Source of the DNA: a virus
Length of the DNA: 64,000 nucleotides
Strand: one strand, 5' to 3'
Virus record (IMG/VR): IMGVR_UViG_3300042946_000249
The notes beneath the pieces are model-generated. The model was not told where the DNA came from and did not search any database. It worked only from the letters and a program-made list of their open reading frames with translations. Position numbers and translations under genes: made by a program. Within the stretch, counting starts at the first letter, position 1. Every line of letters begins with the position of its first letter. Below are positions 1,930-54,700 of this stretch, piece after piece.

Positions 1930-1945
1930 ATGCTTTTTGTTAGTG

Positions 1946-2536: not shown

Positions 2537-2538
2537 AA

Positions 2539-2754
2539 CTATTTGTTTTGCAGGTGTTTCTTAATATCTACTTCCTTGAATGTACGCTTCTGTGGACTAG
2601 CTGCACCCATAGGATCTTGTGTATTATCTACACGAACGCATTCGTACAGACCATCTCCTAAGTGCTTCACTACCTTCCAAGCTTGATATAAAGAGCCACC
2701 AGATGTGCCAGCTTCATACCTTTCAATGTGTTTTCTAAAGATTGTTCCTACCAT
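2539..2754 (-). CDS. hypothetical 71-aa protein (track ORF 2539..2877 trimmed to the internal Met 'MVGTIFRK')
   Basis: The trimmed start avoids overlap with 2774..3043. Confidence 0.3.
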   Translation of the reverse strand: MVGTIFRKHIERYEAGTSGGSLYQAWKVVKHLGDGLYECVRVDNTQDPMGAASPQKRTFKEVDIKKHLQNK

Positions 2755-2773
2755 AATTGTGCATTTTAAAGGA

Positions 2774-3043
2774 TTATTGTTGTTCAGATTTTCTTTTTGG
2801 TGTGTGATAGTATTTCTTGAGCCATTCAAATGGCTTGAGTGCGTTGGTGAACGGACCACCAAACACAGGATATTCATCCTTCATATACTCTTCCTCAATA
2901 TCATCCCACGGATCATATTGGTCAAAGAATTCACCACACTCATTACACAACACATTTATAACTGGCATATGCTTTTGAGCGTAGTCATAATTGAAGTGGA
3001 AGTTCTCTTTCTCTCCACACTGAGGGCAAATTGTCTGTTTCAT
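2774..3043 (-). CDS. zinc-ribbon protein (CPQCG ... CNECG) with acidic C-terminal half
   Basis: Two CxxC pairs 30 aa apart. Confidence 0.5.
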   Translation of the reverse strand: MKQTICPQCGEKENFHFNYDYAQKHMPVINVLCNECGEFFDQYDPWDDIEEEYMKDEYPVFGGPFTNALKPFEWLKKYYHTPKRKSEQQ

Positions 3044-3059
3044 AACTTCTGTGTTTGGA

Positions 3060-3460
3060 CGTGTTTTAGTTCCTGATTTGGCCGTTTATCGCTCATTTAT
3101 GCCTTACCAAAACCCATTTATCGCTCACATATGAGCGATAATGTCCGTTATAACGGACAAAAATGAGCTATAATGTGCATTATATAGCACATTTGTTGTG
3201 CACTTTATACCCTTCCGCATATAAAATCACATGATTGTGCAATATTATACCCTTTAGCGTATAAAAATCACAGAATAAGTGTCAAATTGGTGATATATTT
3301 CCAATTTACGTCATTTATAACGTGAAACTGGTGTCTCAAAGGCCTGATTGGAAATATATTTCCACTTTTACGTACGTAAAAATGTGCTCAAGCTACACTT
3401 TTACGAACATAAAAATGGAACAGCCCATATTTCAGGACTGTTCCAGAGTTACAGCACTTA
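3060..3460. promoter_or_regulatory. control region dense in perfect palindromes and direct repeats
   Basis: Perfect palindromes: 24 nt TTATCGCTCACATATGAGCGATAA (3118-3141), 16 nt GTCCGTTATAACGGAC (3143-3158), 16 nt TGGAAATATATTTCCA (3349-3364), 16 nt TTTTACGTACGTAAAA (3366-3381). Direct repeats: TTATCGCTCA x2 plus one inverted copy; about 27-nt repeat TTATACCCTTnnGCrTATAAAAaTCACA at 3204-3230 and 3246-3273; ATATATTTCCAnTTTaCGT x2-3. Confidence 0.6.
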
Positions 3461-3752
3461 GTAACCCAACCCTTCGAGTTCATATGCACTAGCCTCAACG
3501 ATTATATTACCGTGAGACACTGTGTACATAAATATTATTTGCATGTGATTGGCAAGCTTTTGAAACAGCTTGAACTCTGTGGGCGTAAATGTGAGCTTTT
3601 TCATTTTTGAAGGATTTATTGTGTTGATTAATAAGGACGATTTGCTTTGCGTACCACCTGTTCCCAGGTCATTCTACCCTTGCAGCCATACCCTGTGGTC
3701 CTGCAAGACGACATAAATATAGCAATAACTGCTAATAGTAATAACTTTCTCA

Positions 3753-3902
3753 TTAGTCTATAATGTTTAATAGGTCAGCAATAGATTCCATGCACTCATC
3801 GAAGTATTTAGCGTCCCACATAATGACAGACACTAATGCATTCCATATCATAACAGGAAAACATGCAGCCAAAGAGACAGCATAATAAATAATCTTGAAC
3901 AT
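3753..3902 (-). CDS. small (49 aa) single-TM protein MFKIIYYAVSLAACFPVMIWNALVSVIMWDAKYF..., not in the ORF track (<60 aa)
   Basis: Hand translation of the reverse strand; one hydrophobic helix. Confidence 0.3.
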   Translation of the reverse strand: MFKIIYYAVSLAACFPVMIWNALVSVIMWDAKYFDECMESIADLLNIID

Positions 3903-37300: not shown

Positions 37301-37393
37301 GAATACAAGAAAGCTCTTGAGTCAAAGTCTAAAAAGTCTGACAGTGGGTCTTCCAAAAATGGATCTATTGTAAGGTCTCTTAAAAATATCTAA
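34343..37393 (+). CDS. Gly-rich large virion protein (1016 aa)
   Basis: ORF track. Confidence 0.55.
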   Translation: MKAKMLKIAGVKSEKEFYKKYPTEEAFMAKHGKALKKAQIGSYIGGESGAGFQPMNFQEIYDNVDYGITGSTDEMRKEEELRKAQIKSAQEESGKGGGGGLGDIANVLQSKEFADALTSAAGGARKGKTIKKAQAGDQIEVEEKPGGDFFKQASKYAGPAGKLIEGFQQLKAEKEALKSAQQMQGVSDVVRQAANTRPEETQRRYLRPENIKNTGEEFFPIYGVGTNVLARNGASVGGGEIMNTFAPNTLYDDLGYEPLNDSERYKQFMHGGKMHKAATGLEMFAEAGGGDIASKLLTGITGENAGGNIGGTIGKTAGMFFGPVGSMVGQAAGQLIGTALDRKPQQIKKAKAATEKNIKATALQSGFQGGQAQNSSFMENGGTTSPYEWVSHTWQPQVIATFGEHKVKDLLTPPKDADMLRAGGHLKEYTPPSARAMSTERPDFQMGGELQTHWGGYAESMSQNPYLPDGGETIMFRGQSHDESDGKGNTGIGITYGDNPVEVERGEPAIKMRDGSGGDSSLVVFGNLKIPKLLGDPKAEGKNFKRYVEGLSKNENKQNTLVNKSITEIDEMDVQTPFDRLKFNSLQANVMGGNLKLKDIAQKKMDAAALQTAMNDTIEQFGLKTTDKGNIMAKLGANILKAQTGKDLPKLEQKDYEYLQGLYDVAEREKTGPTVLKFQKEFHRLAKPYAEKVISEEPTTSFGKKMGYPATDIRSNEDKIFGKRTVKYMSALKDAMKSPTPPEKESGLPPITLTTKKSETVPEKEKEGEEPVYPKRPGIINVINEVLPYLRPTDVEDLDPNQLTGEMYALATNQLEPVAAQTIQPQLTIPYDISLQDILNENRASLRSQQRLVGYNPALQSQLGAQEYAANQRVLGEQFRMNQAFKNQIYKENRDKLDQFGLKNLEILDRQYLRQAEAKSKTKATTQAALNSIAAKYAQNKLENRTLQVYENLYNYRFDPRFRATNMNPLVDFEAMIANASPSQIAEYKKALESKSKKSDSGSSKNGSIVRSLKNI

Positions 37394-37480: not shown

Positions 37481-40126
37481 ATGGCTTCATTTACAGACCT
37501 CATACCGCAATTTAACCCCTACATCCAGCAGCTTCCTGTGGAAGCTATGGTGACCGTAGGTATGGAGAAACAGAAGCGCTATGATGAGGGTTTACAGAAA
37601 ATTCAGTCCCAAATTGAAAGGGTTGCTGGTCTAGATCTCTACAGAGATACGGACAAAGCATACCTACAGTCTAAACTGAATGAGCTTGGAAACAACCTAA
37701 AAGTCGTGGCTGCTGGTGACTTCTCTAACTTCCAATTGGTTAATTCTGTTTCTGGAATGACTAATCAGGTGGGGAAAGACCCTATTGTCCAGAACGCAGT
37801 TACCTCTACAGCCAGACTTAGAAGAGAGTTTGCTTCCATGGAAGAATATAAAAAGAAGGGGAAGTCTGATAAAAACAACGAAGAGTTCTTCATGAATAAG
37901 GTGGTAAGACCTTATCTAGACGGACCACTTGATGCTTCTTTTACTGGAGAGTATTCTCCATACACCGACATCATGGGGTTGATTAGTGAGAACATAAAGG
38001 CTGCTGGAATAGACAAGTCAGTGGTACAGCAGATGTACCAAACTGACAATCAAGGCAGATTGATATTTGGAAAAAACGGTGAACCCCTCCCTGCTAGAAC
38101 CATGACTGAGATTGAGACATCAACCAACATGAAGCAGGTGAAGTCAATTGTAGAGAATGTGCTTAGCAGAGGAGATGTACAGAATCAACTTAATATCGAT
38201 GGTTGGGCAAATACAAGAGGTATATCTCCACAGTCTGTCATAGATAACTATCGTGTAGAGTATAGTAAGAAGATAGGAGATGCTGATTCTGACATGTTAG
38301 AAATCAACACCCTTCTTACAGGAAAGATGAATGGTGCTGAGAGGATGGTTCTGGATGAAAAGCTTAAGACTCTTAAGGACGTTAAACAGAAATACAAAGA
38401 TCAATACTTAGCTCTTGGTGAACTTGCACAGTCCAATCCTGATGCTTTTAAACAGGCATATTATAAAACTAACTACGAGAACAATCTTCTTGAACAGTTT
38501 ACAAAATACGAAAGAAGCGAGAAGAACTTAAAGAGTCCTCTTACAGAACAACTTAACTGGGAAGCTGATTATGCCTTCAAAGAAAGGAAAGAAGCATTTG
38601 ACCAGAAAATGGCTGTTCGTAAACAACAACTAGAGGAGAGTAAGTTTCAACTAGAAGGGTTCAAGTTTGAAGCTGATTATGAGTTTGATCAGTCTACAGG
38701 TAAGTGGAAAAAGAAACCAGATCCAAATAAACCATCTGATGGTTCACTACTTCGTCTCACTGCTGATGTTCCTGGAGAAGAGAACAGAAGCGCTGTACAA
38801 AGACAAGAGGCCCAGATTCGTGGTATAGAACAAACCAATAGACAAAACGGAATGGATCTCATGTACAATTATTTGTACAAGTTGAATGATGGTAAAGATA
38901 GTAACGGTCAACCTCTCACAAAAGCTGGTGTTGTTAAAACAGTTGAGAAGTTTGCAAAAGACAACAATGAAACTACAGATCAATTCTTAACCAGATGGAT
39001 CTTGACTCTGAACAATAAAGCAAAAGAAAACGGTGTTAAAATGTCTGCCACAGACACAGAGTCTATTAACAACTTCAAAAGAAACCACTACAACTACACC
39101 ACTCTACTAGCACTTGGAAAGATTGCTGACAATGAAGCATTTAAAGCCACTGGTATAGATCTTAACGATTATACCAAAACGCTTAGTCCAGTGAACGTTA
39201 AGTTGAAAGATGGTAGAAGTGTAACAATCAGTAAAGAAGACATCCTTGACTACATGCTCCTTATTAAGAATGATGATAAGGGTGCTGAAGATAGAATTGT
39301 AGCTAAGTATGGGTCTCTCAAAGACTTCCCTTTAAATACATACAAGGCACCTGGAATTCCCAATAGTGAGTTGGAAACTAGAAAAAACTTACAAAAGCTA
39401 TCTGGCATGTTCTCAATCTATACAAAGGATTGGGATAAGTTCAAACAAGCTTCAAAGGCGAAGAACGACTATCTTGCTAAGGTGGTGAATACAGATGAGA
39501 TGTTTTCTTTTGGTGAGGATGATGAAAAAGGAATGAAGTCTGCAAAGAATAAAGCTTCTGCGTTTATATCAGGAGCATCATCTTTGACAGGAAAGAATTA
39601 TGATAAGAGCAAGGCTTTAACAGCTTTAGCAGATCCTAATTCAAAAATATCTTTCAGGGCAAGTGCACCTTTTGAAGAAGGTGGACAATGGAAAGGTACA
39701 ATGATTATAACCACTGACAAGGGTGAAGTGATTGAGGCTGAGGTTCCTGTTCAAAAAGATTTTGAACAACTCACTGGATCTAAGTTCAATCCTTATAAAT
39801 TCAATCCCCTGAAAGCAAGAGCTTCAGTTAGTAAGTTTGGATCTACAAATCTTGGCGCTTTCACCACAGACTCTAGAGCTTGGGAAAGTGCTGCTATTGG
39901 ATCTGAGGGTCTTGTCTCAATGAAAGATTCAAAGAAATATATTCCATTAGGTGCAGATCTAAATGTACTTCCTAATGGTGGATATACAGTGACAGCTTAT
40001 TTTAAAGATAGGGCTACTGGTAAAATTTTAAATCCAGAGTTTAGTCGTATATACACTGTGGAAGAACAGGCTCAAGCTGACCTAGCTTTACTTACCGAAT
40101 CTATGCTTGATAAGGAGTTAAAATAA
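37481..40126 (+). CDS. large virion protein (881 aa)
   Basis: ORF track. Confidence 0.55.
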   Translation: MASFTDLIPQFNPYIQQLPVEAMVTVGMEKQKRYDEGLQKIQSQIERVAGLDLYRDTDKAYLQSKLNELGNNLKVVAAGDFSNFQLVNSVSGMTNQVGKDPIVQNAVTSTARLRREFASMEEYKKKGKSDKNNEEFFMNKVVRPYLDGPLDASFTGEYSPYTDIMGLISENIKAAGIDKSVVQQMYQTDNQGRLIFGKNGEPLPARTMTEIETSTNMKQVKSIVENVLSRGDVQNQLNIDGWANTRGISPQSVIDNYRVEYSKKIGDADSDMLEINTLLTGKMNGAERMVLDEKLKTLKDVKQKYKDQYLALGELAQSNPDAFKQAYYKTNYENNLLEQFTKYERSEKNLKSPLTEQLNWEADYAFKERKEAFDQKMAVRKQQLEESKFQLEGFKFEADYEFDQSTGKWKKKPDPNKPSDGSLLRLTADVPGEENRSAVQRQEAQIRGIEQTNRQNGMDLMYNYLYKLNDGKDSNGQPLTKAGVVKTVEKFAKDNNETTDQFLTRWILTLNNKAKENGVKMSATDTESINNFKRNHYNYTTLLALGKIADNEAFKATGIDLNDYTKTLSPVNVKLKDGRSVTISKEDILDYMLLIKNDDKGAEDRIVAKYGSLKDFPLNTYKAPGIPNSELETRKNLQKLSGMFSIYTKDWDKFKQASKAKNDYLAKVVNTDEMFSFGEDDEKGMKSAKNKASAFISGASSLTGKNYDKSKALTALADPNSKISFRASAPFEEGGQWKGTMIITTDKGEVIEAEVPVQKDFEQLTGSKFNPYKFNPLKARASVSKFGSTNLGAFTTDSRAWESAAIGSEGLVSMKDSKKYIPLGADLNVLPNGGYTVTAYFKDRATGKILNPEFSRIYTVEEQAQADLALLTESMLDKELK

Positions 40127-40131
40127 AACAA

Positions 40132-43100
40132 ATGCCAGAGTTACCTATTAATCTTTCAGGCACACCAACGTACAAGAGAGCAGCAGGAGCTTCTCCTGAT
40201 AACCTTTCTGTTGCTAATCGTGAATACAATCCATTGAACGATACATCTCTGAACTATGTAACACCAAAGAAATCAGGGTATGATGCTTCTAGCATAACTA
40301 TGGCTGAAGCTGCTGCAGACAGAACTGGTAGATACAAAACCGTAATGTACGGTTATGATAATGAGGAAGCTGCTGCTCAACGTCAAAGCATCCTAGATAA
40401 AGGTGCTAATGGTATATTGAAAGGTGTAAACCTCACAGCCACTACTATCGCTGGAGGCTTTGGTATGTTATATGGGGCAGCTAGAGCTCCCTTCTCAGGA
40501 AGACTTGCTGACATATGGGATAATAGTGTAATGAGAGGTTTGGATGAGTGGAACAAAGAAGTGGATGATAAAATCCTTCCAAACTACTATACAAAGGCTG
40601 AAAGAGATTCAGCTTGGTATTCTCCAGATAACTGGTTCACTGCTAATTTCCTTTTTGATAAACTAATCAAAAACTCAGGATATGCTGTAGGAGCAATGCT
40701 TAGCGGCAACATTGCGAATGCTGGACTTCTTAGAGCTGGTGCAGCTTTAGGGAGAGTGGCATCTGCTGGTGCTGTTGCTGCTGAATCATCTCAAGCATTC
40801 AAGATATTTTCACCCTTGTTGAGAAATACATCAAGGGCTTTTAGTGCTGGTAAGAACATTGAAGCTGCTGCTGTTTTAGAGAAACAACTGTCCTCTATTG
40901 CAGATGTCACTGCTAGGAGTTCTGAGCTTGCAAAGATTGCAAAGACTACAGGCACTTTTGCAGAGTTTGGTAATTCTGCTCGTAGAACAGCTATTGCTGC
41001 CTACTCATCTGCTGGCGAAGCTTCCTTTGAAGCTTTACAAACAGGCAATCAGTTTAGAGATTCTCTGATTCAGGAATACGTAGATAAGTATGGTGAACAA
41101 CCAGCTGGTGATGTTCTGGAAGAAATAAACAAAAGAGCTGACCAGGTTGGTAAAACATCATTCTTTGGTAACCTTGCACTTCTTGGTGCTACAGAATACG
41201 TACAGCTTCCATATCTGTTAGGCTCATCCTACAGAAACACAAGACAGGCAGCTGGTGTATTTGCTGGAAAGGTGGACGATGTTCTTACAAAAACCCCTAG
41301 CACTAAGCTAGGTAAGGTGTATGAAAAAGCCACAAGTGTTGGTAGATATGTATTTGATCCTAAGGAAGCAGGACAAGAGGTAGGTCAGTATGCCCTTCAA
41401 GTGGGTACACAAAACTACTTTAGCAAAGCAGCAGAGTCTGATGATGCTGATGTTTGGGTAGATGGGTTTCTGTATGGGTTTGTTGGTAAAGATGAAGAAG
41501 GAAAGGGAGAAGGTGCTCTTGTATCTAAAGAAGGTATGGAGAGTTTTCTTCTTGGTGGTCTTACAGGTGGACCTCTACAAGCTAGAGCAAAAGCCCAAGA
41601 AAAACGTGCTAAAACTGAAAACACACAACGTTTTCTAGATCAAATTGGTAGAGCTCCTTCTTTTAAAGAAGCATTCCAAGACAGAATGAGTTCTGTAAAC
41701 AGAGGTGTTGTTCTTCAACAACAACATGAAGCTGCTATTGTTACAGGTAATGAGCTTGAAGCTCGTGACTTGAAAACAGACATGATGCACAACTACTTGG
41801 CTCCTAGAATCAAGTATGGCAGATTTGATATGGTTATGGAGGACATTAGTGAACTTCGTGAAATGTCTTCCTCAGAAACTAACCTTGCAGAACTAAAAGC
41901 GCAAGGTATTGCTAACGTTAATGATACAGTTGATAGTTTCCAAAAGAGACTAAACAACTATGAGCGTGTAGCTAAGAACACGAACGAGATATACAACGGT
42001 TTGTACATAAGGTATTCTGGTGAAAGATTGGAAGATGGAAATCCTAAATACTCTCCTTATGTACTAGATAAGATGGCGTACGCAGCTAGTAAGATAGCTG
42101 ACTATGACCTTCGCATTCCACAGCTCAACAACATCCTAACAGAAAAAAGTATTATTGTTGGTAATCTATTGGATGATGTATTGAAAGGTAAAAGACCATC
42201 AAGACAAGCTACAGCAGAGATACTTAACAACATAAATGACCTTTCTACAACCTCTGATGTTAAGGACGGTTTAAAAACTGCTTTACAAGACATCATTAGT
42301 CTTGGTGAGCGTAGGAGAATATTCATGGATGAGTATGAGGACATCAAACAAAACCCTCTCAACTATGAAACCGATCCTGAGTTTAATATAGGAGACAAGG
42401 TTGAAATTCCTGTAAGCGTAGGAGAGCCTGAGAAAAAGGTTGAGATTGGTAAAGAATACTCTCTCGATAAGTCAATGATGAAAGAGGGAAGTGCGCTTTA
42501 CATGGCTCCAAAGCTAACTGTGCTTTCTCAAACTCTTGGTGGTGAACTAGAAGTGAAGATGCCTGGAGGAAAGATTAAGTTCATTGCTCCTGAGGATCTA
42601 AAAGGCTACAACCTATCAGAAGAAGATAACACATCAAAAGAACTGGCAGACATTATGGATGAATCCATAGATGCTGTTCTTAAGAAGGAAGAGTATAAAG
42701 ATCTTCCTGAGATGAAAGATGGCGACAGTAAACTTGGTTATATAAACTCTCTGGCAGATCAGGCTCTTACAGATGATGTAGAAGCTGAGTTCAATAGAAG
42801 AACAGAAGAGTTTGTAAAACGTAAGGAAGAGGAAAGAAAGCAACAAGAAGAGCTTATTAAAAACAGAGCTGCTCTTGAGAAACAACAGACTGAGCTTGAA
42901 GCTAAGTCTGGTACAATAGCCACACCTCCTCCTCCCACTCCTGAAGAACTTCAAACATTAGCTGCTACACAGGGTAAGCTGAAGTCTGCTTTTAAACTAT
43001 TCATATCTGGCACCACTCCTACAGAGCGTGCTGATGAACCCGTACACATTAGAAACTCTAGAGAGTTCTTAAATAATGTAAAGAACTTTAAGAACAAAGG

Positions 43101-46100
43101 TAATCTTGCAGCTATTCTTGTTACACCAAATCAAGAGGCAGCTCTAGGTTTGTCTGGTCTTACAGCATTATCTTATGGAACAGAAGATTCTAGTGATGCT
43201 ACAAACGTAGAGACTGGTCTTGTAGCACAAGTGTTTGTAGAACAAGAGAATGGTAAAACATATTTTGTAAATAAGAACGGTGAGCGTATTGGTGAGATTG
43301 GTAAACCTGTTGATATTCAACAAGTTATATTCCAAACCATGCCCACCCCATCTTTATATGATAGATCTGGCAAGCCTAGGTTTAGAGCTGATGAGATGGC
43401 AGATGCTGAAGCTGCTTCTAAAGGCTGGGCAGCTAAGAGAGTGGAGATATTTGAATCTCCTGCATTCCCTGTAAAAGCATATCGCTTTTCTATATCTAGA
43501 GGAATTCCTGTTCTTAATGTTGTAGATGGTAGATATGAAAGAAACCAGATTGGAGATATCCTCATCCCTGAGAGCAAGATTGCTACACAGGAAGGATTGT
43601 TACAAGTTGTTACACAGGGTAGCGTTGTTCACAACGGTGAGAACATTAAGTTTAACAATGGTCTTACAGTGTTGCAATATGGTGACACACTGCAGATTGT
43701 AAACAACAACCGCCTTGGTGATAAGAAAGCCAACGCTGTCTACCTTGCTATAAAAACTATGATGGATGAGTTTCAGCAAACAAAGAAACTCAATCCAAAC
43801 TTGGCTTCATATATTCAGAATGTTCTATTCTGGAGAAAGACTGCCACCACTTCTGGAAACCAAATCTTTATAAACACCTCCTCTGGAGAAGTGTCATTAG
43901 GAGGTAAGAATTACACTCCTGCAGATCTGGTAAATAAGAAAGATGAGATTGTGGACATGCTCAAAGAAGCATTCCATTCAATCAACAACTCTACACTTAG
44001 AGATAGATTCTATGAACCTTTCTATGAATACAGCGTAGAAAATGACAAACTGGTTGAACAAGAATGGCCTAACTATCAGTCCTACCTTTTGAGCAAGAAG
44101 GGTAGAAGTGCTGATCAAACTCCACTTGTCACTTCTGTAGCTAAACCTACAGAGGCCATCCCTTATTCATACAAGCAGAAGTATGCTACACTCATTGACT
44201 TTGAACTCCCAATGATACAAGCCCCAGCTCCTGCAGCTGCTACAAAGGAAGCTGTAGCTGAGGGTAAAGCAACTCTTGGTGACTTTGTAATGGATGGTGA
44301 GACAAAGAACACCTTTACAGGTTTCAAGACTGGTCCTATTGATTTCACAGGAACAATAGATGACAAGGGTGATATATCAGTGGATGTTCTGTCAAACGAC
44401 ACTATTATAAATGCTGCTAAGAACGGTAAGCTTGTAAACGAAACAGTGGTTCCTGCTCTTAAAGAAGCTAATCAGTTTGATGCTTCTGCAGATGACATAG
44501 AGCTTGTTACAATGTTTGTAGCAGGTAAGCTTGCTATTGAACTTAAGGCTCTACAACCAGTTGCTGAAGTTAAAGAAGCAGCTCCTGTTTCTACAGATGC
44601 TAAAGCTGATATAAATAGAATAGTAGATGCATTTAATCCAGAGGATAATTTTAAAAGTCCAGTAGATGCGTGGAGCGTTGTTATTGAAGATGATAAAGGT
44701 AATTTAGTAAAACCTGAAATAATTGTAGAAATAAAAGGAATCGATTATACTAAAAAAGAATTATTAGATATTGAAGATCCTGAAAACCCTGCTGTAGAAG
44801 AAACTTTAAATGAAATTGACAGGCTTCAAAAATTACTTGAAGCAGAACTAGCTGCTTTAGAAGGAGCTAAACCTGCTGAAGGAACTTATAATCCAGAAGG
44901 AACAGGTGCTCCTCAGGATGACTATATGAGAGTGGGAGTGAAAGAGGCTGGTGCTGAAATGCTTACAGGTGCACAGATAGAACTGTTCAAGATTTGGGCT
45001 GCAGAAAAGGTTCCTGGTATTCCATACGAGGTGTTAGACAATATTGTTAACACATATGACAACCAGAAAGCATGGGGTGTATTTGAGAACAATGTAGCCA
45101 AGTTCTACAAGGGTGCTCCTGGCACCACTCCATACCATGAAGTGTTTGAAGGTATATGGAAAGGTTTCCTCACTCCTGAACAAAGACAACTTATCCTTGA
45201 TGAGTTCAAGTCTAAGACTGGTCAGTTTACAGACAGAGCCTCTGGCAAGAAGATAAACTATGCTGATGCTACAGATCAACAAGCTAAGGAAAGAATAGCT
45301 GATGACTTTGGTGCATTTAGAGTGGGTAGACTTCCTGCACGTAGCTTGGGAGAAAGAGTGCTTAGATTTTTTAAAGACATCATAGAGTTCTTCAAGTCCT
45401 TTGTACAGAAACCTTCTATGAAGGAAGAGCTGTTCAAGGCTATTGAGGCTGGTAAGTTTAAAGATGCCATCCTCCCTGCTTCTATTGCTGCATCCACTCC
45501 TGAATACATGCGCATCCCTGGACTTACAGAAACTCAAGCTTATGAGTTTGTTCAGGATATGACAGCTCGTGTAGCCAATTATATATTTGGAGACAGCAAG
45601 AAGTCTCTCTACGATATTAAGAAAATCACTGGCAAAGAAATCTTTGACAAGATTAAAGAAGCTTACGCAAGTAAAGCTGAGAACAAATATGAAAAGCTTG
45701 GCGAAGAGCGTTTCAACCAGTTGGTTATCAGAACAAAAGAAAAGCTTCGTACACTGGGTATCAACTTTAATGATGAGGACACAGTGGATATAAATGATGA
45801 GAATGTTTCTAACAGAGACTATGCTCCTGAGCCATTCTCTACAGACTGGAAGAAGACATCTCCTTTCCCAGTTAAACTTGTAGCAGCTACCCTCCCTGAG
45901 GTAAAGCCTACAAACCAGCAAACTGAATCATCTCTAAAACTTCCTGAGCGTCAGACATCAAGTGTGTTGGGATTGAAACTGGCAAGTTTTGGTAGAGTGT
46001 TCAATACATTGTTGGATAAGGTTTCTAATACAACCAATGTTAATTTGGTAAAGAACAAGCTTGTTGACCTTGCTAAAAGCGATGGTACATTTGTTCGTTT

Positions 46101-49100
46101 CTTCCAACGTATAGGTGGTGATTTAAATAATATGGACTTCAAACTCTCTAGTAGAGAGGACTGGAGACTATTTATTAATTTCTACCAGACATTTACCAAG
46201 CAGAAACCTAATGCTGACATCCAATACTTTGATGGCAACAGTGTATATACAGCTCCTGCTAACCAGTTCACTGCCAGCAAACTTTTACAAAGTGAGTGGT
46301 TTGAGAACATGAAGGCTTTGGCTGATGACCCATCATCTATTATAAAGAGGAAGAAGCAAAACTTTGAAGTGGACAAGAGTAAGTTACCTGGCGCAGTTCC
46401 TAAACAACCTGAGGCAATGGTTAACTTCCTTGCAGATCTTGGTGTAAGTTTCCCTCTTAGTGCATACACATCCTTGAATCGTAATCAGAAAGATGATTTT
46501 GGTAAAGCTGTTGGAGGAATATACACATACATACAGAAGAACACTGAGGTGGGTACAGTTACAGGTAAGACACTTGGAATCAATCCTCAGTTGTCTGACC
46601 TAGCCAATCTCTACATCAAAGTGACCAATCCTTCTCAGGACACTACATATTTTGGTGTTGAGAACCAACGCATTCAATCTTACGCTGAGAATAACGTTCC
46701 TTCTGTAATGGAGAATGAGTTCAACAGTGTTGAGACAGTTGAAGAACTGAAGCAGCTCAGACCAGAACTTAACGATGTATTCTCTACAAACAGCATCACT
46801 CTTAAAGATGGTGGCAACTTCTACAATCTAGAAGGACAGAGATACAAAACAATCAAGGTTGGATACATCCAGGGTAGAAAGACAGTGGACACTGATAAAG
46901 GTGTTACCACTAGCAAGCTTACCCTTGGTGATCGTTTCACACAAGAGATTAATGAGAACCTGAATGGTGACTACTATATTCTGGTTCCTGCTGATGGATC
47001 TACAGAATGGAAGATAAACCTAGGTAACCATATGTCATTTGTTGACATAGCTGGCGGAAGGGCTTGGAATAAGATTTACAGTATATTTAAAGGATATCTG
47101 CAGGATGAGGTGGCTCTTGCTCTTGATTATGAGAACAGAGAGAAACTTAAGAATGTTGGAGACAAGGCAAAACAACTTCGCTTCTTTAAGGAAATCTTAA
47201 AGGAAAAGAACGTTACTGCCATTGAGAAAATGATCGCTAATGGTTCTACACAGGACCAGATCAATGAGTATATTGATAAAAACATTGATGACATCAATGC
47301 TGCTGTAGCTGACTTCATCAATAATACAGTGGAAGAAACAACAACTCTTCTTATAAACAACAATCAGATATCTCAAGTTAAGGAAGGTCAATATAGCTAT
47401 CCTGGGCTACAAGATAAGTTTGCAACAGCAAACGATATTAATAAGTTTAATATGTCTGAGCAGGACGTTAAGAATCTCTTAACGTTTGTAAATGCAAACT
47501 ATGTCATCAACAACATAGAGTTGCATAAGTTTATATTTGGTGACCCATATGAGTTTGCTATAAAGAACGGTAAACTTGATGAGACCAAACGTATCAAAAG
47601 CTTCTTGTCTCCACGTAGGATTACATTTGACAGTCCTGAGTACAATAGCTTCCTTAATGATGACTACAATACAGCTAGTGGTGTTAAGCTCACTCCTAAC
47701 GATCCTGGTTATCATTTACATAAGTCTTACACAAACACTATAACACTGGCTGACATCAACCTGTCTAGCGAACTCTATCCTAAGATCAATGAAGCAGATG
47801 CTGCTTCGTTCATCATGGACACCACCTATAGAGAGGTGAAGCTGAAGAATGGTCAGTGGATTGATGAGATTTCAGAACCTTGGCATCAATGGCAAATGGC
47901 TTATACAAGAAATAAGCTGGCTGCTAAAGGTGAATACACATACACAAGTGATAGATTACAAAAGGCTGATGCTGAATTAATTAGCAAACCTGAGCCTGCA
48001 TTTGTAACAGAGGTTCTCAAACCTATCGTATCTGGTGTAAAAGCTGCTGAGACAAAGATTGACAATGTTCTAGACAAGTTCTCTCAAATGCCTCTATATT
48101 ATAAAGACGTTGAGGGTAGAAATCTTGAGAAGCTCTACATCAAAATGTGGAAAGAGAACATTGGGTATGCTGTGTTTGAGAGCGGTAGAAAGCTGGGTGC
48201 TACAGAATTGTACAGTTTGTATAACAGTAATGGAGACATCAACGATAAACCTTTCACCAAAGAACAGATTGTAAAGGTGCCTTGGAAGGCATATGGTATA
48301 CAGGTGGAGAATGCATATGAGAACCCTAAGGATCAAACTCGTGGTTCTCAGTTGACAAAACTTTCTAGTCTTGATTTGTTTAGTGATGGTAAAGGTACAG
48401 AACAAGCTAAGAAGGCTTACGAACGTAACCTTAAAGCTTTGAATGCTTTGCATGAGGACGGTTATAAAACTCTTCTTGACAAACTTGGCATTGAGGACTT
48501 GGGTGATGGTTTCCGTCTTGTAGATCCTGCAGCTGTTCAGGAAACTCTTGAGTATGAACTACTTAGAAGAGAGATGGCTGAGAATGCTAAAGACACAATC
48601 AAGCGTGATGAGAACGGTCAGTTTATTATTCCTTTTGAAGCTTCTCCTGCCTACAAACAAATAAAGGACATTCTGTTCTCAATAGTTAACAAGTCTCTTG
48701 TTAGTCCTAAGATGAACGGTGCTCCTAAGGTGCAGGTTCCTGTAACAGGATGGGAGAAACAAAATAGAAAGTCTGGCAAACCAAACCCAGAGCTGAAGTT
48801 CTACACTAAGGAAGATCCTTATATGGAAGTGTTGCTTCCTCATTGGTTTAGAGGTAAGTTCAATAAGAAGAAGTTCCCTAACGACGAGGCTATTCTTAAA
48901 TACCTAAACACTAGTCCAGAGGGTAAGTCTATCCTCAGCGGTGTTGGCTTCCGTATTCCTACACAGTCTATGTCCTCTATTGAGGTGTTTAGAGTGAAAG
49001 GGTTCTTGCCACAATCTATGGGTGACACTATAGTGGTTCCTTCTGAAGTGACAGCAAAAGCTGGATCTGACTTTGATATAGATAAAATGAACACCTATCT

Positions 49101-51744
49101 CAAGTCTACATACATAGACAAGAATGGTGATATTAAACTGGTTAAATACCAAGGGTCTGAAGAAAGTACAAAAGAGTTCTTTGGTAAGGTGTTTGATGCT
49201 GCACTTGACAAGCAGAAGGTGAACAAAGCTGAACTTCTTGAAGCTGTGCAAATTCTTTCCCTTGGACTAGAGGATTCAAATAACTTATTAGACAAATACG
49301 CAAACCTTCTTGATGTTCTTCTAGAGGATGTGAAAGACTCCTCAGAGTTTGAGAACAAGGTGATGCAAGAACTTGAAAGACTGGGAGACGCTAACTTACA
49401 AGCTAAGTTGAAAAACAGGTTTGTAAATGATATGTACAAGCGCTCTTTAGAGAACGAGTATTACAATGCTCTTGAGGAAATGATCACCCTCCCTGAAAAC
49501 TTTAGTCGTCTAATTGCTCCTGTAAACGATGCTGGTCTTTCTGATCTAGCTACAGAGCTTGATACTCTTAGAAAAGAAGATGAAACCACCATACCAGGTA
49601 GATTGCTCAACCGCAACTACATGACTCCTCTTAGAAATGCATTTGTCACTGCTAAGAAGTGGGTGGGTATTTCTGCTGTAAACATTACAGGTCAGTCTCT
49701 TACACAGAAGGCTGAGGTGTATGTTGACCCTGCTAGAATTGAAGGATTGCCTGATTTTGACAAGAAGATACTTGGAGATGGTAAGGTGCTGCTTCCTCAC
49801 AACAAGGTGGTTGTTGATGGTAATGAGTACATATCTATCTCTGGTAAGATGACTGAAGATGGTACACAGTACATATCTGATAGGCTCTCTGGATATGCCA
49901 CATCATTTGTGGATGTAGCCAAAGATCCTTACATCATGAAGATCATTGGTTCTAATTCTGTTGTAGGCACATTCATGTTCCTTGAGAGAATAGGCGTTGG
50001 TGAAAACACCATATGGTTCCTTAACCAACCTATCATCAGAGAATACCTAAGCTACCTAGATAGCATTGGTAAGAAAGGATTGTTTGGTAAAAAGGATGGT
50101 GAATACATCAGAAGCATGTTCCCAACATCTGTAAAAGATGCAACATTTGATCCTAGTACACTAAAAGAGAACATCAGCAAGTATTACGATAAGCAGTTCA
50201 ATAATGAGGACAATGCTACTCAACAAGCAATATTCACTGAGTTCCTGAAGTATGCTAAAATGGCTGAGTATAGCTTTAAGCTTACACAGGCTTCCAACTA
50301 TGACACTACTAAATTTAGGAGTGGTGATGAGTTTAGTAGGAAACAAACCAGAACAGCAACAGCTAGAGACAAAAACATTTTCTCATCTGTAGATAAGGTG
50401 TTAGACTCTTCCTTTATAGGAAACCAGGCTAAGTTTATTGACAGCGCTATGTCATCCTTGGGAGAGATTATCAAAACTGAGAAGGATGACTTTACTATCA
50501 TCACAAACGATGTTATTAAACCATTCCTAGAGAACGAGTTCCTTAGTGCAGAAGACTTTAACAAGGTGGCTAGCAAAGCTAAGACATCGTTCATTGACTA
50601 TATTGTGCAGACACAGAGTTCTTTGAACACAGAGATAGAAGCTCTTGTTGTGTCAAACAGTTCTGTAGCAGACCAATTGGCTCAAGCTAAGAAAAGACGT
50701 CCTGAGATGAAACTTCTTAATGAGCTACAGGTGGTAAGTTCTGATAGAACTGGAGGAGCTAAAAGCATAAGGCTTAGAGCTAATCTGAAGGATGCTTTTG
50801 ATACAGACATGTATACAGACATGATGAGAGAGTTGAAACTGGTAGAACCAGAGTTGTACAACGGTCTTGTTAAACTGTCTCTGCTTCAGGGTACATATCA
50901 AACAGCTATATCTATTAGAAATATTATACCTGTAGAGGATTTGTCTCCAATGATTAAACCTGTAATTGATTCTCTCACATCTACAGAAGAGGTGAAGAAC
51001 TTTACCAAAGGAGCGTTCTACAGAAATAACTGGAAGGACAATACAATTGTACCTTTTGCACAGCCTAAATTCTTTGCAGCTTCTGAAACACCTTTAGGAG
51101 AAGATCCTTCTGGTAATGAGATATATCAATACTATTCACCTCTGTTTCCTAACATAGAATACTTTGGTATACAATCTTCAGATCGTAAAGTGTTGTTACT
51201 CAGTGAGATATACAATTCTGCTGAAGTGAAGTATGACTTTGTAAAGGTACCTCGTGTTGTAACGGACAAGAAAACTGGTGAGATGATTGACATGGTAACT
51301 GGTCAAACTGTAACCCGTGCAATGTTTGCTAGACAAAAAGCCCAAGGTGATTTGTCTCTGAAGGATGTGTTTGGTTATCAAAAGGTGAAATACGCTAACG
51401 GTGAACCTCTTGTAACATTTAAAGGTGACCATGTATACAAACTGGTAAACCTGTATGGTGATGGTCAGCTTGTTTCTGAATACTATCTAGAGAGCAAACC
51501 TTCTGTTCTGAACAACGGCACTATAAAAGTGGATAACGAAATTCCTGATGCTGAATTGATAAAGTTCTTTGGCGCTGAGGAAGTTGTTGTACCTTTACAA
51601 GATACTAAGGTGACTACACCATCTGGGAACTTAAAGCTGAAAGATGGTAACGAATATCCAATATCAGATATAAACGCACAACTATTGGAGAAGATTGGGT
51701 ATACACCTAAAGAAATTGGTAAACTTTTAAAAGCAATCTGTTAA
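40132..51744 (+). CDS. giant virion protein (3870 aa) with DFDID (DxDxD) motif; candidate virion-packaged RNA-polymerase-like cargo protein
   Basis: GSDFDIDKMNTYLKS at nt about 49066 (about residue 2980); Gly/Ala-rich hydrophobic N-terminal region. Confidence 0.6.
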   Translation: MPELPINLSGTPTYKRAAGASPDNLSVANREYNPLNDTSLNYVTPKKSGYDASSITMAEAAADRTGRYKTVMYGYDNEEAAAQRQSILDKGANGILKGVNLTATTIAGGFGMLYGAARAPFSGRLADIWDNSVMRGLDEWNKEVDDKILPNYYTKAERDSAWYSPDNWFTANFLFDKLIKNSGYAVGAMLSGNIANAGLLRAGAALGRVASAGAVAAESSQAFKIFSPLLRNTSRAFSAGKNIEAAAVLEKQLSSIADVTARSSELAKIAKTTGTFAEFGNSARRTAIAAYSSAGEASFEALQTGNQFRDSLIQEYVDKYGEQPAGDVLEEINKRADQVGKTSFFGNLALLGATEYVQLPYLLGSSYRNTRQAAGVFAGKVDDVLTKTPSTKLGKVYEKATSVGRYVFDPKEAGQEVGQYALQVGTQNYFSKAAESDDADVWVDGFLYGFVGKDEEGKGEGALVSKEGMESFLLGGLTGGPLQARAKAQEKRAKTENTQRFLDQIGRAPSFKEAFQDRMSSVNRGVVLQQQHEAAIVTGNELEARDLKTDMMHNYLAPRIKYGRFDMVMEDISELREMSSSETNLAELKAQGIANVNDTVDSFQKRLNNYERVAKNTNEIYNGLYIRYSGERLEDGNPKYSPYVLDKMAYAASKIADYDLRIPQLNNILTEKSIIVGNLLDDVLKGKRPSRQATAEILNNINDLSTTSDVKDGLKTALQDIISLGERRRIFMDEYEDIKQNPLNYETDPEFNIGDKVEIPVSVGEPEKKVEIGKEYSLDKSMMKEGSALYMAPKLTVLSQTLGGELEVKMPGGKIKFIAPEDLKGYNLSEEDNTSKELADIMDESIDAVLKKEEYKDLPEMKDGDSKLGYINSLADQALTDDVEAEFNRRTEEFVKRKEEERKQQEELIKNRAALEKQQTELEAKSGTIATPPPPTPEELQTLAATQGKLKSAFKLFISGTTPTERADEPVHIRNSREFLNNVKNFKNKGNLAAILVTPNQEAALGLSGLTALSYGTEDSSDATNVETGLVAQVFVEQENGKTYFVNKNGERIGEIGKPVDIQQVIFQTMPTPSLYDRSGKPRFRADEMADAEAASKGWAAKRVEIFESPAFPVKAYRFSISRGIPVLNVVDGRYERNQIGDILIPESKIATQEGLLQVVTQGSVVHNGENIKFNNGLTVLQYGDTLQIVNNNRLGDKKANAVYLAIKTMMDEFQQTKKLNPNLASYIQNVLFWRKTATTSGNQIFINTSSGEVSLGGKNYTPADLVNKKDEIVDMLKEAFHSINNSTLRDRFYEPFYEYSVENDKLVEQEWPNYQSYLLSKKGRSADQTPLVTSVAKPTEAIPYSYKQKYATLIDFELPMIQAPAPAAATKEAVAEGKATLGDFVMDGETKNTFTGFKTGPIDFTGTIDDKGDISVDVLSNDTIINAAKNGKLVNETVVPALKEANQFDASADDIELVTMFVAGKLAIELKALQPVAEVKEAAPVSTDAKADINRIVDAFNPEDNFKSPVDAWSVVIEDDKGNLVKPEIIVEIKGIDYTKKELLDIEDPENPAVEETLNEIDRLQKLLEAELAALEGAKPAEGTYNPEGTGAPQDDYMRVGVKEAGAEMLTGAQIELFKIWAAEKVPGIPYEVLDNIVNTYDNQKAWGVFENNVAKFYKGAPGTTPYHEVFEGIWKGFLTPEQRQLILDEFKSKTGQFTDRASGKKINYADATDQQAKERIADDFGAFRVGRLPARSLGERVLRFFKDIIEFFKSFVQKPSMKEELFKAIEAGKFKDAILPASIAASTPEYMRIPGLTETQAYEFVQDMTARVANYIFGDSKKSLYDIKKITGKEIFDKIKEAYASKAENKYEKLGEERFNQLVIRTKEKLRTLGINFNDEDTVDINDENVSNRDYAPEPFSTDWKKTSPFPVKLVAATLPEVKPTNQQTESSLKLPERQTSSVLGLKLASFGRVFNTLLDKVSNTTNVNLVKNKLVDLAKSDGTFVRFFQRIGGDLNNMDFKLSSREDWRLFINFYQTFTKQKPNADIQYFDGNSVYTAPANQFTASKLLQSEWFENMKALADDPSSIIKRKKQNFEVDKSKLPGAVPKQPEAMVNFLADLGVSFPLSAYTSLNRNQKDDFGKAVGGIYTYIQKNTEVGTVTGKTLGINPQLSDLANLYIKVTNPSQDTTYFGVENQRIQSYAENNVPSVMENEFNSVETVEELKQLRPELNDVFSTNSITLKDGGNFYNLEGQRYKTIKVGYIQGRKTVDTDKGVTTSKLTLGDRFTQEINENLNGDYYILVPADGSTEWKINLGNHMSFVDIAGGRAWNKIYSIFKGYLQDEVALALDYENREKLKNVGDKAKQLRFFKEILKEKNVTAIEKMIANGSTQDQINEYIDKNIDDINAAVADFINNTVEETTTLLINNNQISQVKEGQYSYPGLQDKFATANDINKFNMSEQDVKNLLTFVNANYVINNIELHKFIFGDPYEFAIKNGKLDETKRIKSFLSPRRITFDSPEYNSFLNDDYNTASGVKLTPNDPGYHLHKSYTNTITLADINLSSELYPKINEADAASFIMDTTYREVKLKNGQWIDEISEPWHQWQMAYTRNKLAAKGEYTYTSDRLQKADAELISKPEPAFVTEVLKPIVSGVKAAETKIDNVLDKFSQMPLYYKDVEGRNLEKLYIKMWKENIGYAVFESGRKLGATELYSLYNSNGDINDKPFTKEQIVKVPWKAYGIQVENAYENPKDQTRGSQLTKLSSLDLFSDGKGTEQAKKAYERNLKALNALHEDGYKTLLDKLGIEDLGDGFRLVDPAAVQETLEYELLRREMAENAKDTIKRDENGQFIIPFEASPAYKQIKDILFSIVNKSLVSPKMNGAPKVQVPVTGWEKQNRKSGKPNPELKFYTKEDPYMEVLLPHWFRGKFNKKKFPNDEAILKYLNTSPEGKSILSGVGFRIPTQSMSSIEVFRVKGFLPQSMGDTIVVPSEVTAKAGSDFDIDKMNTYLKSTYIDKNGDIKLVKYQGSEESTKEFFGKVFDAALDKQKVNKAELLEAVQILSLGLEDSNNLLDKYANLLDVLLEDVKDSSEFENKVMQELERLGDANLQAKLKNRFVNDMYKRSLENEYYNALEEMITLPENFSRLIAPVNDAGLSDLATELDTLRKEDETTIPGRLLNRNYMTPLRNAFVTAKKWVGISAVNITGQSLTQKAEVYVDPARIEGLPDFDKKILGDGKVLLPHNKVVVDGNEYISISGKMTEDGTQYISDRLSGYATSFVDVAKDPYIMKIIGSNSVVGTFMFLERIGVGENTIWFLNQPIIREYLSYLDSIGKKGLFGKKDGEYIRSMFPTSVKDATFDPSTLKENISKYYDKQFNNEDNATQQAIFTEFLKYAKMAEYSFKLTQASNYDTTKFRSGDEFSRKQTRTATARDKNIFSSVDKVLDSSFIGNQAKFIDSAMSSLGEIIKTEKDDFTIITNDVIKPFLENEFLSAEDFNKVASKAKTSFIDYIVQTQSSLNTEIEALVVSNSSVADQLAQAKKRRPEMKLLNELQVVSSDRTGGAKSIRLRANLKDAFDTDMYTDMMRELKLVEPELYNGLVKLSLLQGTYQTAISIRNIIPVEDLSPMIKPVIDSLTSTEEVKNFTKGAFYRNNWKDNTIVPFAQPKFFAASETPLGEDPSGNEIYQYYSPLFPNIEYFGIQSSDRKVLLLSEIYNSAEVKYDFVKVPRVVTDKKTGEMIDMVTGQTVTRAMFARQKAQGDLSLKDVFGYQKVKYANGEPLVTFKGDHVYKLVNLYGDGQLVSEYYLESKPSVLNNGTIKVDNEIPDAELIKFFGAEEVVVPLQDTKVTTPSGNLKLKDGNEYPISDINAQLLEKIGYTPKEIGKLLKAIC

Positions 51745-54700
51745 TGGCAACCTGTCCAAATACAAATCTTGACTCTTGGAAAGAACTAGTGGCTTCTAAA
51801 GGAGAGGATCTTGCCTACTATCTGTGGGACAAGTATGATGGTAATATTCCTGAGGATGCAACTGTGCCCACTCCTGATTCTCCTGTAGCATCTCCTAAGA
51901 CCATTGCGTTGATCAAAGACTTCATCAAGCGCATTGGTGTGGACATTAAGGTGTTGAAACAGATTGAGGTGAATGGTGTGAAGTATGATGACAAGGGTGC
52001 TGCACTTGTGATGCAGAAACTAATACAAGTGGTTGAAGGTAAAGAGGCTGAAGCTCTTCCTGAGGAAGCAATGCACTTTGCTGTGTCAATTATCAAACAG
52101 ACCAACCCAGCATTATACAAGAAACTACTAGGTGAAATTAACAACTATCGCATTCTAAAGGATGTATTTGCTACATATAGCAAAGATCCAAACTACCAAA
52201 TAGATGGTAAACCTGATGTTGTCAAACTGAAGGAAGAAGCTATTGCTAAGGTGTTGACACAGGTAGTTATAGATAAGAACGAGGGTAACACTGAAACCCT
52301 TCAGAAGATAGCTAATGTAGAAAGCTGGTGGCAACAGATTATAAGAGCCATCAAGAATCTATTTGCTAAAAGTGGATTTGACCAACTCGCTATAGACATC
52401 ATGTCTGGTAATGAGATTGGTACAGCTGAGGATATCAGAGAGGAGCAAGACGCTATATTTTTCTCAAAGAATCCTCAAGAATCTATATTCGATAGGATTA
52501 GAGAGGTGTCTGGAAGAATTGAGAAGAAGGAGGATGGTTATTACATTGATGGTAAGAAGATAAACAGAAGGGTTACAGACATTGTAAAAGATTGGTATTC
52601 TAGAAGGTTTAACGATAAAGATCTTACCAAAAGTGAATATGCTAAAGCTGTAGATGATTTAAAGCGTGAGAAGGGTACAGCTGGACACGCTGATATAGAG
52701 AACATGTTCAAGGTGTTTGTAGATGAGAACGGTTACCTAAGAGAAACTCCTTTGGATGACTCTACGTATGTATCTCAGCTCAACCCATCTAATAGAGACA
52801 TGTACAACTCTCTAAAGGAAAATATGGAAGCTAGACTTAAGTCTTTCCCTCAGGGTACAAGATTTATGTCTGAGATAACTGTGTACGATGCTAAACGTGG
52901 ACTGGCTGGTACAATAGACTTCCTTGCAGTGACACCAACAGGTGAGACTAGCATATTAGACTGGAAGTTCATGGATCTGAATGTAAACAAGTATACAGAC
53001 ATTCCTTGGTATAAGGTGAATGCTTGGAGACAGCAGATGGAGCAATATAAACTCATCCTACAAAATGTCTATGGTGTTAAACCTCAGGACTTCAGACAAA
53101 CCAGGATGATTCCTATACAGGCTGTGTATTCACAGGGTAATGCCAAAATTAACATTCTACCTCAGTTGCTTAGCGTTAAGATAGGAGATGTGAATGTTAA
53201 GAACATTGCAGATGACTACTTGCTTCCTGTAGGACTGGAAGGTGAAAAGACTGGTAATAAAAAGATTGATGCATTGATTGAGAAACTCAATGCTGTATAT
53301 AAGAAGTTCTCTGAGAAGAAAGTGCTTCCTTCAGAGAAGTTAAGTAAGGCTGAGCAACTTAATGAGCTGTTTACAGCTATCAGGCAGTTGCAAATTAAGG
53401 GCAACCTTAAACCTTTGCTTAGACAGGCTAAGATATTGAACAAGCAAATCCAGAAAACTATAGAAACTTACAACAGTAAGTTTGCTGGTCAAGATCCTTC
53501 ACAGTTTAGCCAGAAAGAAATAAACAGTTTTGCTGAGGAATTACAGACAGCTCAGGATGCTATCAACACTTACGTTAATCTCGACACAGACCTTAGAGGT
53601 CTATTTGTAGGAGAATTATCTGAGGAAGATAGAAAACTTAAGGATGATTTAAGAGATGCTGCTGATGATGCCAGAGATATACAATCAACTTTGAATGACA
53701 TCCTTAATGATTACACTTCTGAGATTATTGCTAAGAGTGAAGGGGTGGATAGTTTACTGTCTCCTGAAAAGATTGTAAAGGGTATTACAAAACTGTTTGC
53801 ATCTACAGCCACCATACAGCTAAAAGCTATGGAAGTGTTGTACAAGAAAGCAAATAAAGCGTTTGCTCTTGCAGGTTATGATACACTAACAGAAAGCAAA
53901 AAGCTACAATCTCTGAAAGAGGCCTATGATAAATGGGCTGCTTCAAAAGGACTTTCACAGAAAGACTACTTTAACATTATTAAGAAGAAGAAGAGTAACG
54001 AACTGATTGATGAATTCAATCCTGAGTTCTATTCCACCCTTAAGAAGAACATAGAAGAGAAAGATTCTCAGTGGGTTAGGGACAACATCAATGTGTCTGA
54101 GTACAATGAGTTCTTAAAGAAAAAGTTAGAAGAGGAGTTTGAGAGAATAGAGAACAAGCACAGAGTGGGTACAGAAGTGGAAATTAATTCTGAAATCACT
54201 CGTGAGAAGAATCAGGCAAAGTTGCTCTACAATACATCCACTACAGAAAGTGCTGGATGGTTGCTATACGACTTTGTGAAACTGTTCCCTAAACGTGAGA
54301 CCTGGGAGTCTAAAGAATGGAAAGAGCTTAATAATCCTGCCAATAAACCTGCTCTAGATTTCTACAACTACATCAAAGAGAGAAACGAAATCTACCGTGA
54401 GTTGGGATATATAGGAAGAGCTGAGGCTCGTACATTCCTTCCATTTGTAAGAAAGAGTCTTGTAGAGAAACTTATTACAGGAGGGAACGTAAGACTTGGC
54501 GAACAGTTCTTTAGAGATATATCAATCGATGAGGGTGATATAGGATATGGAAAGATTGATCCTCTAACAGGTAAACCTATAGATGCGCTTCCTAAGTATT
54601 TCACAAAAGAAGTGGAAGGGGAAGTGAGTGATGACTTGTTTAGAACTATGGCTATGTACAATGAGTCTGCCATCAGATACCAATATCTCAGTGAGATTGA

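Follow-up and report, generated by a model that had tools for sequence, protein, structure and literature searches.

A giant gene of an environmental phage lineage joins a gp47-type cargo module to a probable virion RNA polymerase of the gp66 family

The IMG/VR virus record IMGVR_UViG_3300042946_000249 was analysed as one stretch of 64,000 nucleotides (nt), here called the window. At the 3′ end of a same-strand block of virion structure genes, with terminase, portal, major capsid and tail genes upstream, lies an open reading frame (ORF) of 3870 amino acids (aa) that begins with ATG; the window contains no Ns. The original prediction for this locus proposed that the giant ORF encodes a packaged two-barrel RNA polymerase (RNAP) of the crAss type fused to a large N-terminal region, and that it is flanked by an 881-aa ORF upstream and a 1562-aa ORF downstream, the latter coupled to it by TAATG. 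An ORF check bears out all three reading frames (Table 1). The string KAGSDFDIDKMNTYLK is found in the giant protein, and the DFDID motif, earlier put at about residue 2980 and near nt 49066, occupies residues 2980–2984. Homology, the conserved motif and a second barrel support the proposed enzyme. The ORF very probably encodes a virion-packaged, DNA-dependent, single-chain two-barrel RNAP of the phi14:2 gp66/crAss001 gp50 family at aa ~1600–3870, fused in frame to a module of ~1500 aa of the gp47/gp67 family.

The polymerase core is recognized by several searches. With phmmer against the PDB, phi14:2 gp66 (6vr4_A) is retrieved at E=2.6e-22, query residues 2626–3315 being aligned with gp66 1022–1681, and the block GSDFDIDKM is identical in the two proteins. 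BLASTP extends the similarity to query 2421–3348 and gp66 832–1711 (E=8e-31), and hidden Markov models (HMMs) of the RNAP module match both gp66 and gp50. The module HMMs all derive from 64 giant homologues, and their E-values are for a nominal database of 1e5. A tblastn search of GenBank phages yields 123 records; nearly all are crAss-like, and most bear an RNA polymerase annotation. Pfam adds a weak, sub-threshold match to Rpb1 domain 2, which is the domain bearing NADFDGD, exactly at aa 2941–2997. The prediction depended on conservation of the DFDID motif in homologues. DFDxD is kept in all 120 homologues retrieved and the exact GSDFDID in 113 of them, and the identity of the surrounding block to that of gp66 excludes a chance match. 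The 65 giant ORFs show no variation at residues D2980, F2981, D2982, D2984, K2985, K2630 and K2649; R2941 and P2943 are likewise invariant in the family and intact in the window protein.

The prediction also depended on a double-psi beta-barrel (DPBB) fold around the motif. Such a fold is present, and the fold comparison gives a two-barrel enzyme. An AlphaFold2 model of aa 2420–3600 (63 homologues) is confident, with a predicted local distance difference test score of 86.7 and a predicted template modelling score of 0.84. Two DPBBs lie in one chain and are joined by a connector of ~140 residues. The barrel that does not hold the DFDID motif carries the conserved lysines that had been anticipated, K2630 and K2649, which we take to correspond in function to the conserved lysine pair of the bacterial beta subunit. 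Helices are predicted at aa 3161–3192, in agreement with the position of the bridge helix. Positions of the gp66 landmarks come from the gp66 paper and were transferred by HMM-guided alignment; the first barrel, connector, second barrel, bridge helix and trigger loop prove to be collinear with those of gp66. Among the lower-ranked two-barrel matches of a fold search with the core model are P23-45 gp96, the non-virion RNAPs of AR9 and PhiKZ, and QDE-1. The search also lists bacterial and eukaryotic beta′/Rpb1, RDR2 and isolated DPBB domains.

Homology to gp66, by sequence and fold together, covers all of aa 1600–3870, and this region (~2270 aa) amounts to a whole enzyme of gp66 size. Its first part, module B, has by structure the gp66-like N-terminal ~800 residues, a fold unique to the gp66 family. 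The C-terminal ~220 aa give no informative match and show conservation only within the clade. The beginning of module B (aa 1600–1900, termed B1) has a further relationship, as its HMM matches the C-terminus of crAss001 gp47 (E=1.6e-15). It contains an HExx(E/H) motif, in which the last position is E in about three-quarters of the 65 giants and H in about one-quarter, and H1669, E1670 and E1720 are at least 97% conserved, a gluzincin-like pattern. A zincin-like metalloprotease domain has been reported for crAss RNAP-associated proteins. Here the zincin assignment is at the level of the motif, with no Pfam match and no zincin in the fold searches.

The N-terminal ~1500 aa are a known cargo module of the gp47/gp67 family and not an unknown extension. 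The HMM of module A1 (aa 40–760) matches the N-terminus of gp47 at E=2e-70 and that of gp67 at E=1e-11, and the family is also represented by phi17:2 gp039 and by a 1552-aa protein of Leptolyngbya phage Lbo-JY46. Module A2 has no match in reference phages or the PDB, and a profile of module A as a whole recovers only coiled-coil noise from the PDB. Because A1 resembles gp47/gp67, B1 the gp47 C-terminus, the RNAP part gp66/gp50 and the downstream gene gp49/gp65, the giant ORF is a collinear gp47::gp50 (gp67::gp66) fusion that is followed by the gp49/gp65 gene. Module boundaries (Table 1) were drawn from conservation and from two genuine gene splits among the relatives, those of loci L050 and L069. 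The N-terminal third had been described as Gly/Ala-rich and hydrophobic. Enrichment in Gly and Ala is indeed seen (G+A of 0.19–0.32 vs ~0.1 elsewhere), but in the first ~500 aa only, and the hydropathy of these residues is approximately neutral; a Kyte-Doolittle scan of the N-terminal region finds no transmembrane-like 19-residue segment (maximum mean 1.22).

Two relatives illustrate variation in this half of the protein. In L001, which is 94% identical, 74 aa of the linker (aa 1505–1578) are missing. A 4025-aa homologue in L003 (L003 1424–13501) shows 72–76% identity to the window protein over most of its length and 24% in the first ~800 aa, i.e. in A1. This suggests either replacement of the module or very fast divergence between close relatives.

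Table 1. Features of the giant ORF and of the neighbouring ORFs in the window (aa, residues of the giant protein; RNAP, RNA polymerase; DPBB, double-psi beta-barrel)
Feature	aa	nt	Strand	Remarks
1016-aa ORF		34343..37393	+	Cys-free; possible further cargo by position and composition
881-aa ORF		37481..40126	+	Cys-free; candidate cargo protein
Giant ORF	1-3870	40132..51744	+	gp47-like cargo module fused to a full-length, very probable crAss-type virion RNAP
Module A1	40-760	40249..42411	+	Homologue of crAss001 gp47 and phi14:2 gp67 N-termini
Module A2	890-1500	42799..44631	+	Conserved in environmental clade; charged coiled-coil stretch ahead, aa ~850-950
Linker	1501-1599	44632..44928	+	Poorly conserved, low occupancy in 64 homologues
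Module B	1600-2420	44929..47391	+	Structural equivalent of gp66 N-terminal ~830 aa
HEVFE motif	1669-1673	45136..45150	+	Variant of HExxH in crAss001 gp47 and cr108_1
First barrel, DPBB-B (beta-like)	~2625-2718	48004..48285	+	Contains K2630 and K2649
K2630	2630	48019-48021	+	Aligned to gp66 K1012
K2649	2649	48076-48078	+	Aligned to gp66 K1027
Barrel connector	2719-2866	48286..48729	+	Corresponds to gp66 1095-1238
Second barrel, DPBB-A (beta′-like)	~2867-3010	48730..49161	+	Holds the catalytic motif
DFDID metal-binding motif	2980-2984	49069..49083	+	Corresponds to gp66 1361-1365
Bridge-helix equivalent	3160-3190	49609..49701	+	Corresponds to gp66 1529-1559
Trigger-loop equivalent	3246-3285	49867..49986	+	Corresponds to gp66 1598-1636
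C3870	3870	51739..51741	+	Sole cysteine, last residue; conserved C-terminal Cys of gp47 and gp50 families
1562-aa ORF		51744..56432	+	crAss001 gp49/phi14:2 gp65 homologue; start overlaps giant stop, TAATG at 51742-51746

Several points weigh against the polymerase assignment. Identity of the core to characterized enzymes is low (21–25%), and module B shows no sequence similarity by HMM to the gp66 N-terminus, the match being recovered only by structure. In the crystal of gp66 the DFDID motif is in a self-inhibited conformation, and the route of activation is unexplained even for gp66 (gp66 paper). Packaging, ejection and activity are attributed to the window protein by homology. The position of the phage itself also counts here. 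Its terminase large subunit (TerL), portal and major capsid proteins match crAss-associated PHROGs. By pairwise identity, the best GenBank match of TerL is Leptolyngbya phage Lbo-JY46 (39.6%), followed by Cellulophaga phages phi17:2/phi4:1 (Lightbulbvirus; 32.9%), with classified Crassvirales at 27–29%. No RNAP module is found across the whole genome of Lbo-JY46 by six-frame HMM and tblastn searches, and phi17:2 has no match in the RNAP-core search of GenBank phages. The history of the RNAP gene in this lineage is therefore not simple, as the enzyme is undetected in the phages that are closest by TerL. Since the A1 family is present in Lbo-JY46 without the RNAP, the A1 cargo module is older than, or more widely spread than, its association with the polymerase.

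Lbo-JY46 (PP438436, L087–L089) is unclassified and is the closest cultured relative by TerL. It retains one counterpart of the 881-aa ORF, a gene of the A1 family and a muzzle-like one, ordered as in the window. A 2748-aa gene with two HExxH motifs occupies the place of the RNAP.

The fused gene plan is the usual one in the lineage. A scan of IMG/VR yields at least 477 confirmed relatives, and the ORF plan was scored in the best 80 loci. A1 and RNAP lie in one ORF in 66 of the 70 complete RNAP-bearing ORFs of these loci, and the fused ORFs span 3188–5107 aa with a median of 4228. The protein had been considered far larger than the described examples of ~2200 aa. Its size is normal for the lineage, and crAss RNAP genes reach ~6000 aa (review). 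Polyprotein fusions of crAss RNAPs have already been noted, as relayed second-hand in the bioRxiv version of the gp66 paper. Genuine splits are rare: the break in L050 is near query aa 1775 and past the HExx(E/H) motif, an arrangement shared with crAss001, and that in L069 follows A1.

An organization with separate genes as the norm was considered and rejected. A large protein database, searched with three segments of the giant protein, contains proteins of 900–2600 aa, and L001 and L002 have split ORFs. The breaks are scaffold gaps: Ns interrupt the giant gene at L001 9802–9811, at L002 7073–7172 and 9866–9965, and at L003 9889–9988, and the L001 and L002 breaks coincide with these runs. A frame change in L009 occurs in a run of A. 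The same observations bear on the idea that the window ORF is itself an artefact, in which an indel or misassembly has joined adjacent gp47-like and RNAP genes. Two- or three-ORF versions in close relatives (L001, L002 and L009), together with the shorter database proteins, speak for it. Against it stand the exact placement of the L001 and L002 breaks at N runs, an N run of L003 that lies inside the 4025-aa ORF, the absence of Ns from the window, and 66 independent contigs from different samples with an uninterrupted ORF. An artefact is effectively refuted.

Two other explanations concern what the fold is for. An inactive relic, in which the RNAP fold is kept and the protein serves solely as structural or ejection (channel-forming) cargo, would fit Lbo-JY46, which retains the A1 protein and has another gene at the RNAP position. 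In the window protein and in 64 homologues, however, every family-wide invariant residue of the catalytic site is intact, and purifying selection is obvious, so that a relic is highly improbable. The life-style shared with phage N4, whose giant packaged RNAP of ~3500 aa is ejected with two partner proteins, might suggest an N4-type vRNAP (Schitoviridae gp50-like), i.e. a right-hand polymerase of the T7 type within a giant protein. The modelled fold is two-barrel and the N4 vRNAP domain appears only at a Foldseek E of 8.6; an enzyme of the N4 type is refuted by the fold comparison.

A more serious question is whether the fusion persists as one polypeptide. The 3870-aa product might be a polyprotein from which cleavage, after synthesis or at head maturation, yields an RNAP of ~2270 aa and a protein of the gp47 type. 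The site would be the variable linker (aa ~1500–1600) or a position after the HExx(E/H) domain, which could itself make the cut. Fused versions are proposed to be ‘likely cleaved’ (gp66 paper). In keeping with this, the linker is poorly conserved and of low occupancy, some natural genes end after A1 (L069) or around query aa 1775 (L050 and crAss001 gp47|gp50), and the gluzincin-like residues H1669, E1670 and E1720 are conserved. On the other side, about three-quarters of the homologues have HExxE and not HExxH. In addition, separate gp47-like and RNAP proteins each end in a Cys of their own, whereas the fused protein has a terminal Cys only and none at the junction, which agrees with one polypeptide working as a unit, at least where the role of the terminal Cys is concerned. 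Processing of this kind is plausible but is judged the less probable course.

The cysteine pattern deserves attention in its own right. The four ORFs between 34343 and 56432 contain 2 Cys in 7329 aa, compared with a Cys content of 0.47–0.89% in portal and terminase and 1.7–8.6% in most tail and fibre proteins. Of the 65 giant ORFs, 64 have a Cys among their last six residues; Cys makes up 0.042% of the residues in these ORFs, the chance expectation is ~0.25% for each, and the tails are otherwise dissimilar. It is situated within the last two to four residues in gp66, gp67, gp47 and the cr108_1 protein and 11 residues from the end in gp50, while phi17:2 gp039 (L090) and the Lbo-JY46 A1 protein (L087) have exactly one Cys each, as the last residue. 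A Cys of the terminal type is also present in 83 of the 111 matches of the module A search (gut-phage gp47-type proteins), with tails …[D/Y]YIRCMI. At the genuine splits of L050 and L069, both ORFs carry a terminal or near-terminal Cys. The pattern thus spans three phage lineages (crAss-like phages, Lightbulbvirus phi17:2 and a Leptolyngbya phage) and applies to all genuine C-termini of the gp47 and gp50 families. Terminal Cys is absent at the artefactual breaks and at internal fusion junctions, and from all 69 members of the gp49/gp65 family. The feature is not mentioned in the gp66 preprint or in the crAss001 atlas.

One tentative suggestion is that the C-terminal cysteine works as a tag on cargo proteins of the gp47 and gp50 families. 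A disulfide, or another covalent or metal link, could tether the C-terminus within the capsid and serve for packaging or as a ‘last-out’ anchor, to be freed by reduction in the cytoplasm, and with no other cysteines the protein might remain able to unfold on its way through the tail channel. If the tag is real, the fusion acts as a single tagged unit. The Cys-poor cargo block with its lone terminal Cys gives a simple way to test how internal proteins are loaded and released by crAss-like phages, a step that was left open by the crAss001 structural work.

For the virion RNAP proposed here, the work on gp66 and crAss001 suggests a sequence of events. The giant protein would be made late and then loaded into the capsid. 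It would leave through a tail channel of <50 Å, partly unfolded, ahead of or with the DNA. Once refolded in the cell, the polymerase would hold Mg2+ with its three aspartates and transcribe early phage genes independently of the host RNAP.

The neighbouring ORFs had been proposed to encode ejected cargo proteins. For the downstream 1562-aa ORF, the HMM search gives E=2e-24 with gp49, 1.7e-105 with the counterpart in cr108_1 and a weak 9.5e-4 with gp65; homologues of this gp49/gp65 family have been detected by mass spectrometry in virions of crAss001 and phi14:2. The ORF has no Pfam or PDB match and, unlike phi14:2 gp65, no HExxH motif. A weak match to an ‘exonuclease’ PHROG (phrog_298, E=9e-8) is seen at its aa 257–448. 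The upstream 881-aa ORF is a candidate cargo protein by its position, its lack of Cys and a pairing conserved in Lbo-JY46, where its sole GenBank relative is encoded directly upstream of the A1-family gene. No counterpart of the 881-aa ORF is detectable in crAss001 or phi14:2, and the 1016-aa ORF has no informative homologue; no relation of either to crAss001 gp45/gp46 or phi14:2 gp68 was found.

Farther downstream, a reading frame that stays open for at least 2362 codons (56913–64000, + strand) runs off the end of the window and for this reason is missing from the ORF list. It begins with ~160 unique residues, followed by ~400 and ~260 residues of collagen-like Gly-X-Y triplets (GTSGTS...), and the rest, >1300 residues, consists of Cys-rich ~14-aa ‘GG..N.ASG’ repeats. 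This is probably a tail fibre. The frame accounts for the rise in GC and GC skew at 58–64 kb and for spurious overlapping ORFs on both strands at 57320–59575. A counterpart of the repeat gene is also present in L001.

Among the relatives, two further features of the polymerase gene can be mentioned. In cr108_1 (L005, NC_055878 13401–13692) the RNAP gene is broken exactly at DFDID: one ORF stops at the residue that aligns with query 2980, the next starts at 2981, and 290 nt separate the two. The gap suggests an intron, or an insertion of another kind, inside the catalytic motif; the like has been noted for other crAss groups. In addition, many RNAP homologues bear domains that the window protein lacks, namely NADAR, AlkB-like dioxygenase, PIF1/RecD-type helicase and histidine phosphatase domains (P0004/L002 10001–14818, P0011, P0016, P0032, P0035, P0037, P0066, P0074, P0079, P0085 and P0114); the NADAR domain of L002 is a C-terminal extension at aa 1411–1525. 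Such enzyme domains could be delivered with the polymerase, e.g. for counter-defence or DNA repair.

The window protein is a solid but ordinary find, as the enzyme is of a known kind and its arrangement is common in environmental relatives. Its analysis assigns the largest gene of an uncultured environmental phage lineage of ~110–125 kb to a characterized enzyme family. It also shows that module boundaries in the crAss ‘transcription block’ are fluid, the fused form being usual in this lineage as a single polypeptide of 3200–5100 aa: here the modules share one ORF, in L069 the break follows A1, in L050 and crAss001 it lies past the HExxH-type domain, and phi14:2 keeps them apart as gp67|gp66. 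Protein databases hold such giants as fragments, partly owing to scaffold gaps, and impressions of length drawn from databases are unreliable.

The nearest characterized system is that of Cellulophaga phage phi14:2, where gp67 (1797 aa), gp66 and gp65 are encoded in a row and are all found in virions. Mg2+-dependent and template-dependent RNA synthesis has been demonstrated for gp66, as has rifampicin-resistant early transcription (gp66 paper). The window protein has the same order of landmarks as gp66 and the same gene context between gp67-like and gp65-like sequences, and both proteins carry a near-terminal Cys. However, gp66 is a separate protein of 2180 aa, whereas here the gp67-family protein is fused N-terminally, and gp66, which has no HExxH, lacks the HExxE-motif domain with which the gp66-equivalent region of the query begins. 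Mass spectrometry found gp47, gp49 and gp50 in crAss001 virions, and they are assigned to the cargo zone of the capsid (crAss001 atlas). Query aa 94–742 correspond to gp47 101–818 and aa 1600–1900 to gp47 2104–2312, which includes the HExxH-type motif (HEAFH in gp47, HEVFE here), and the query core corresponds to gp50 984–2213. The crAss001 genes are separate, with gp49–gp50 inverted relative to gp47, and gp47 is longer (2341 aa) than its window equivalent of ~1800–1900 aa. The uncultured RefSeq phage cr108_1 (NC_055878) has, in ORFs of 2967 and 798 aa, the same fused plan of a ~1440-aa N-terminal part, an HExxH domain and RNAP. These align with query 1575–3678 (E=8e-53 and 8e-19), and the N-terminal 1436 aa have no BLASTP similarity to module A.

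More distant systems share either the fold or the life-style. Neurospora QDE-1 and plant RDR2 are RNA-interference polymerases of eukaryotes; they are far smaller, have ~10% identity and are not virion proteins. Thermus phage P23-45 gp96 is a virion RNAP fused to a tape measure, but with the RNAP at the N-terminus, in a siphovirus and in another two-barrel clade. Coliphage N4 gp50 is a giant packaged RNAP that is ejected with partners and carries out early transcription, yet its T7-like fold is unrelated and there is no significant similarity to the window protein.

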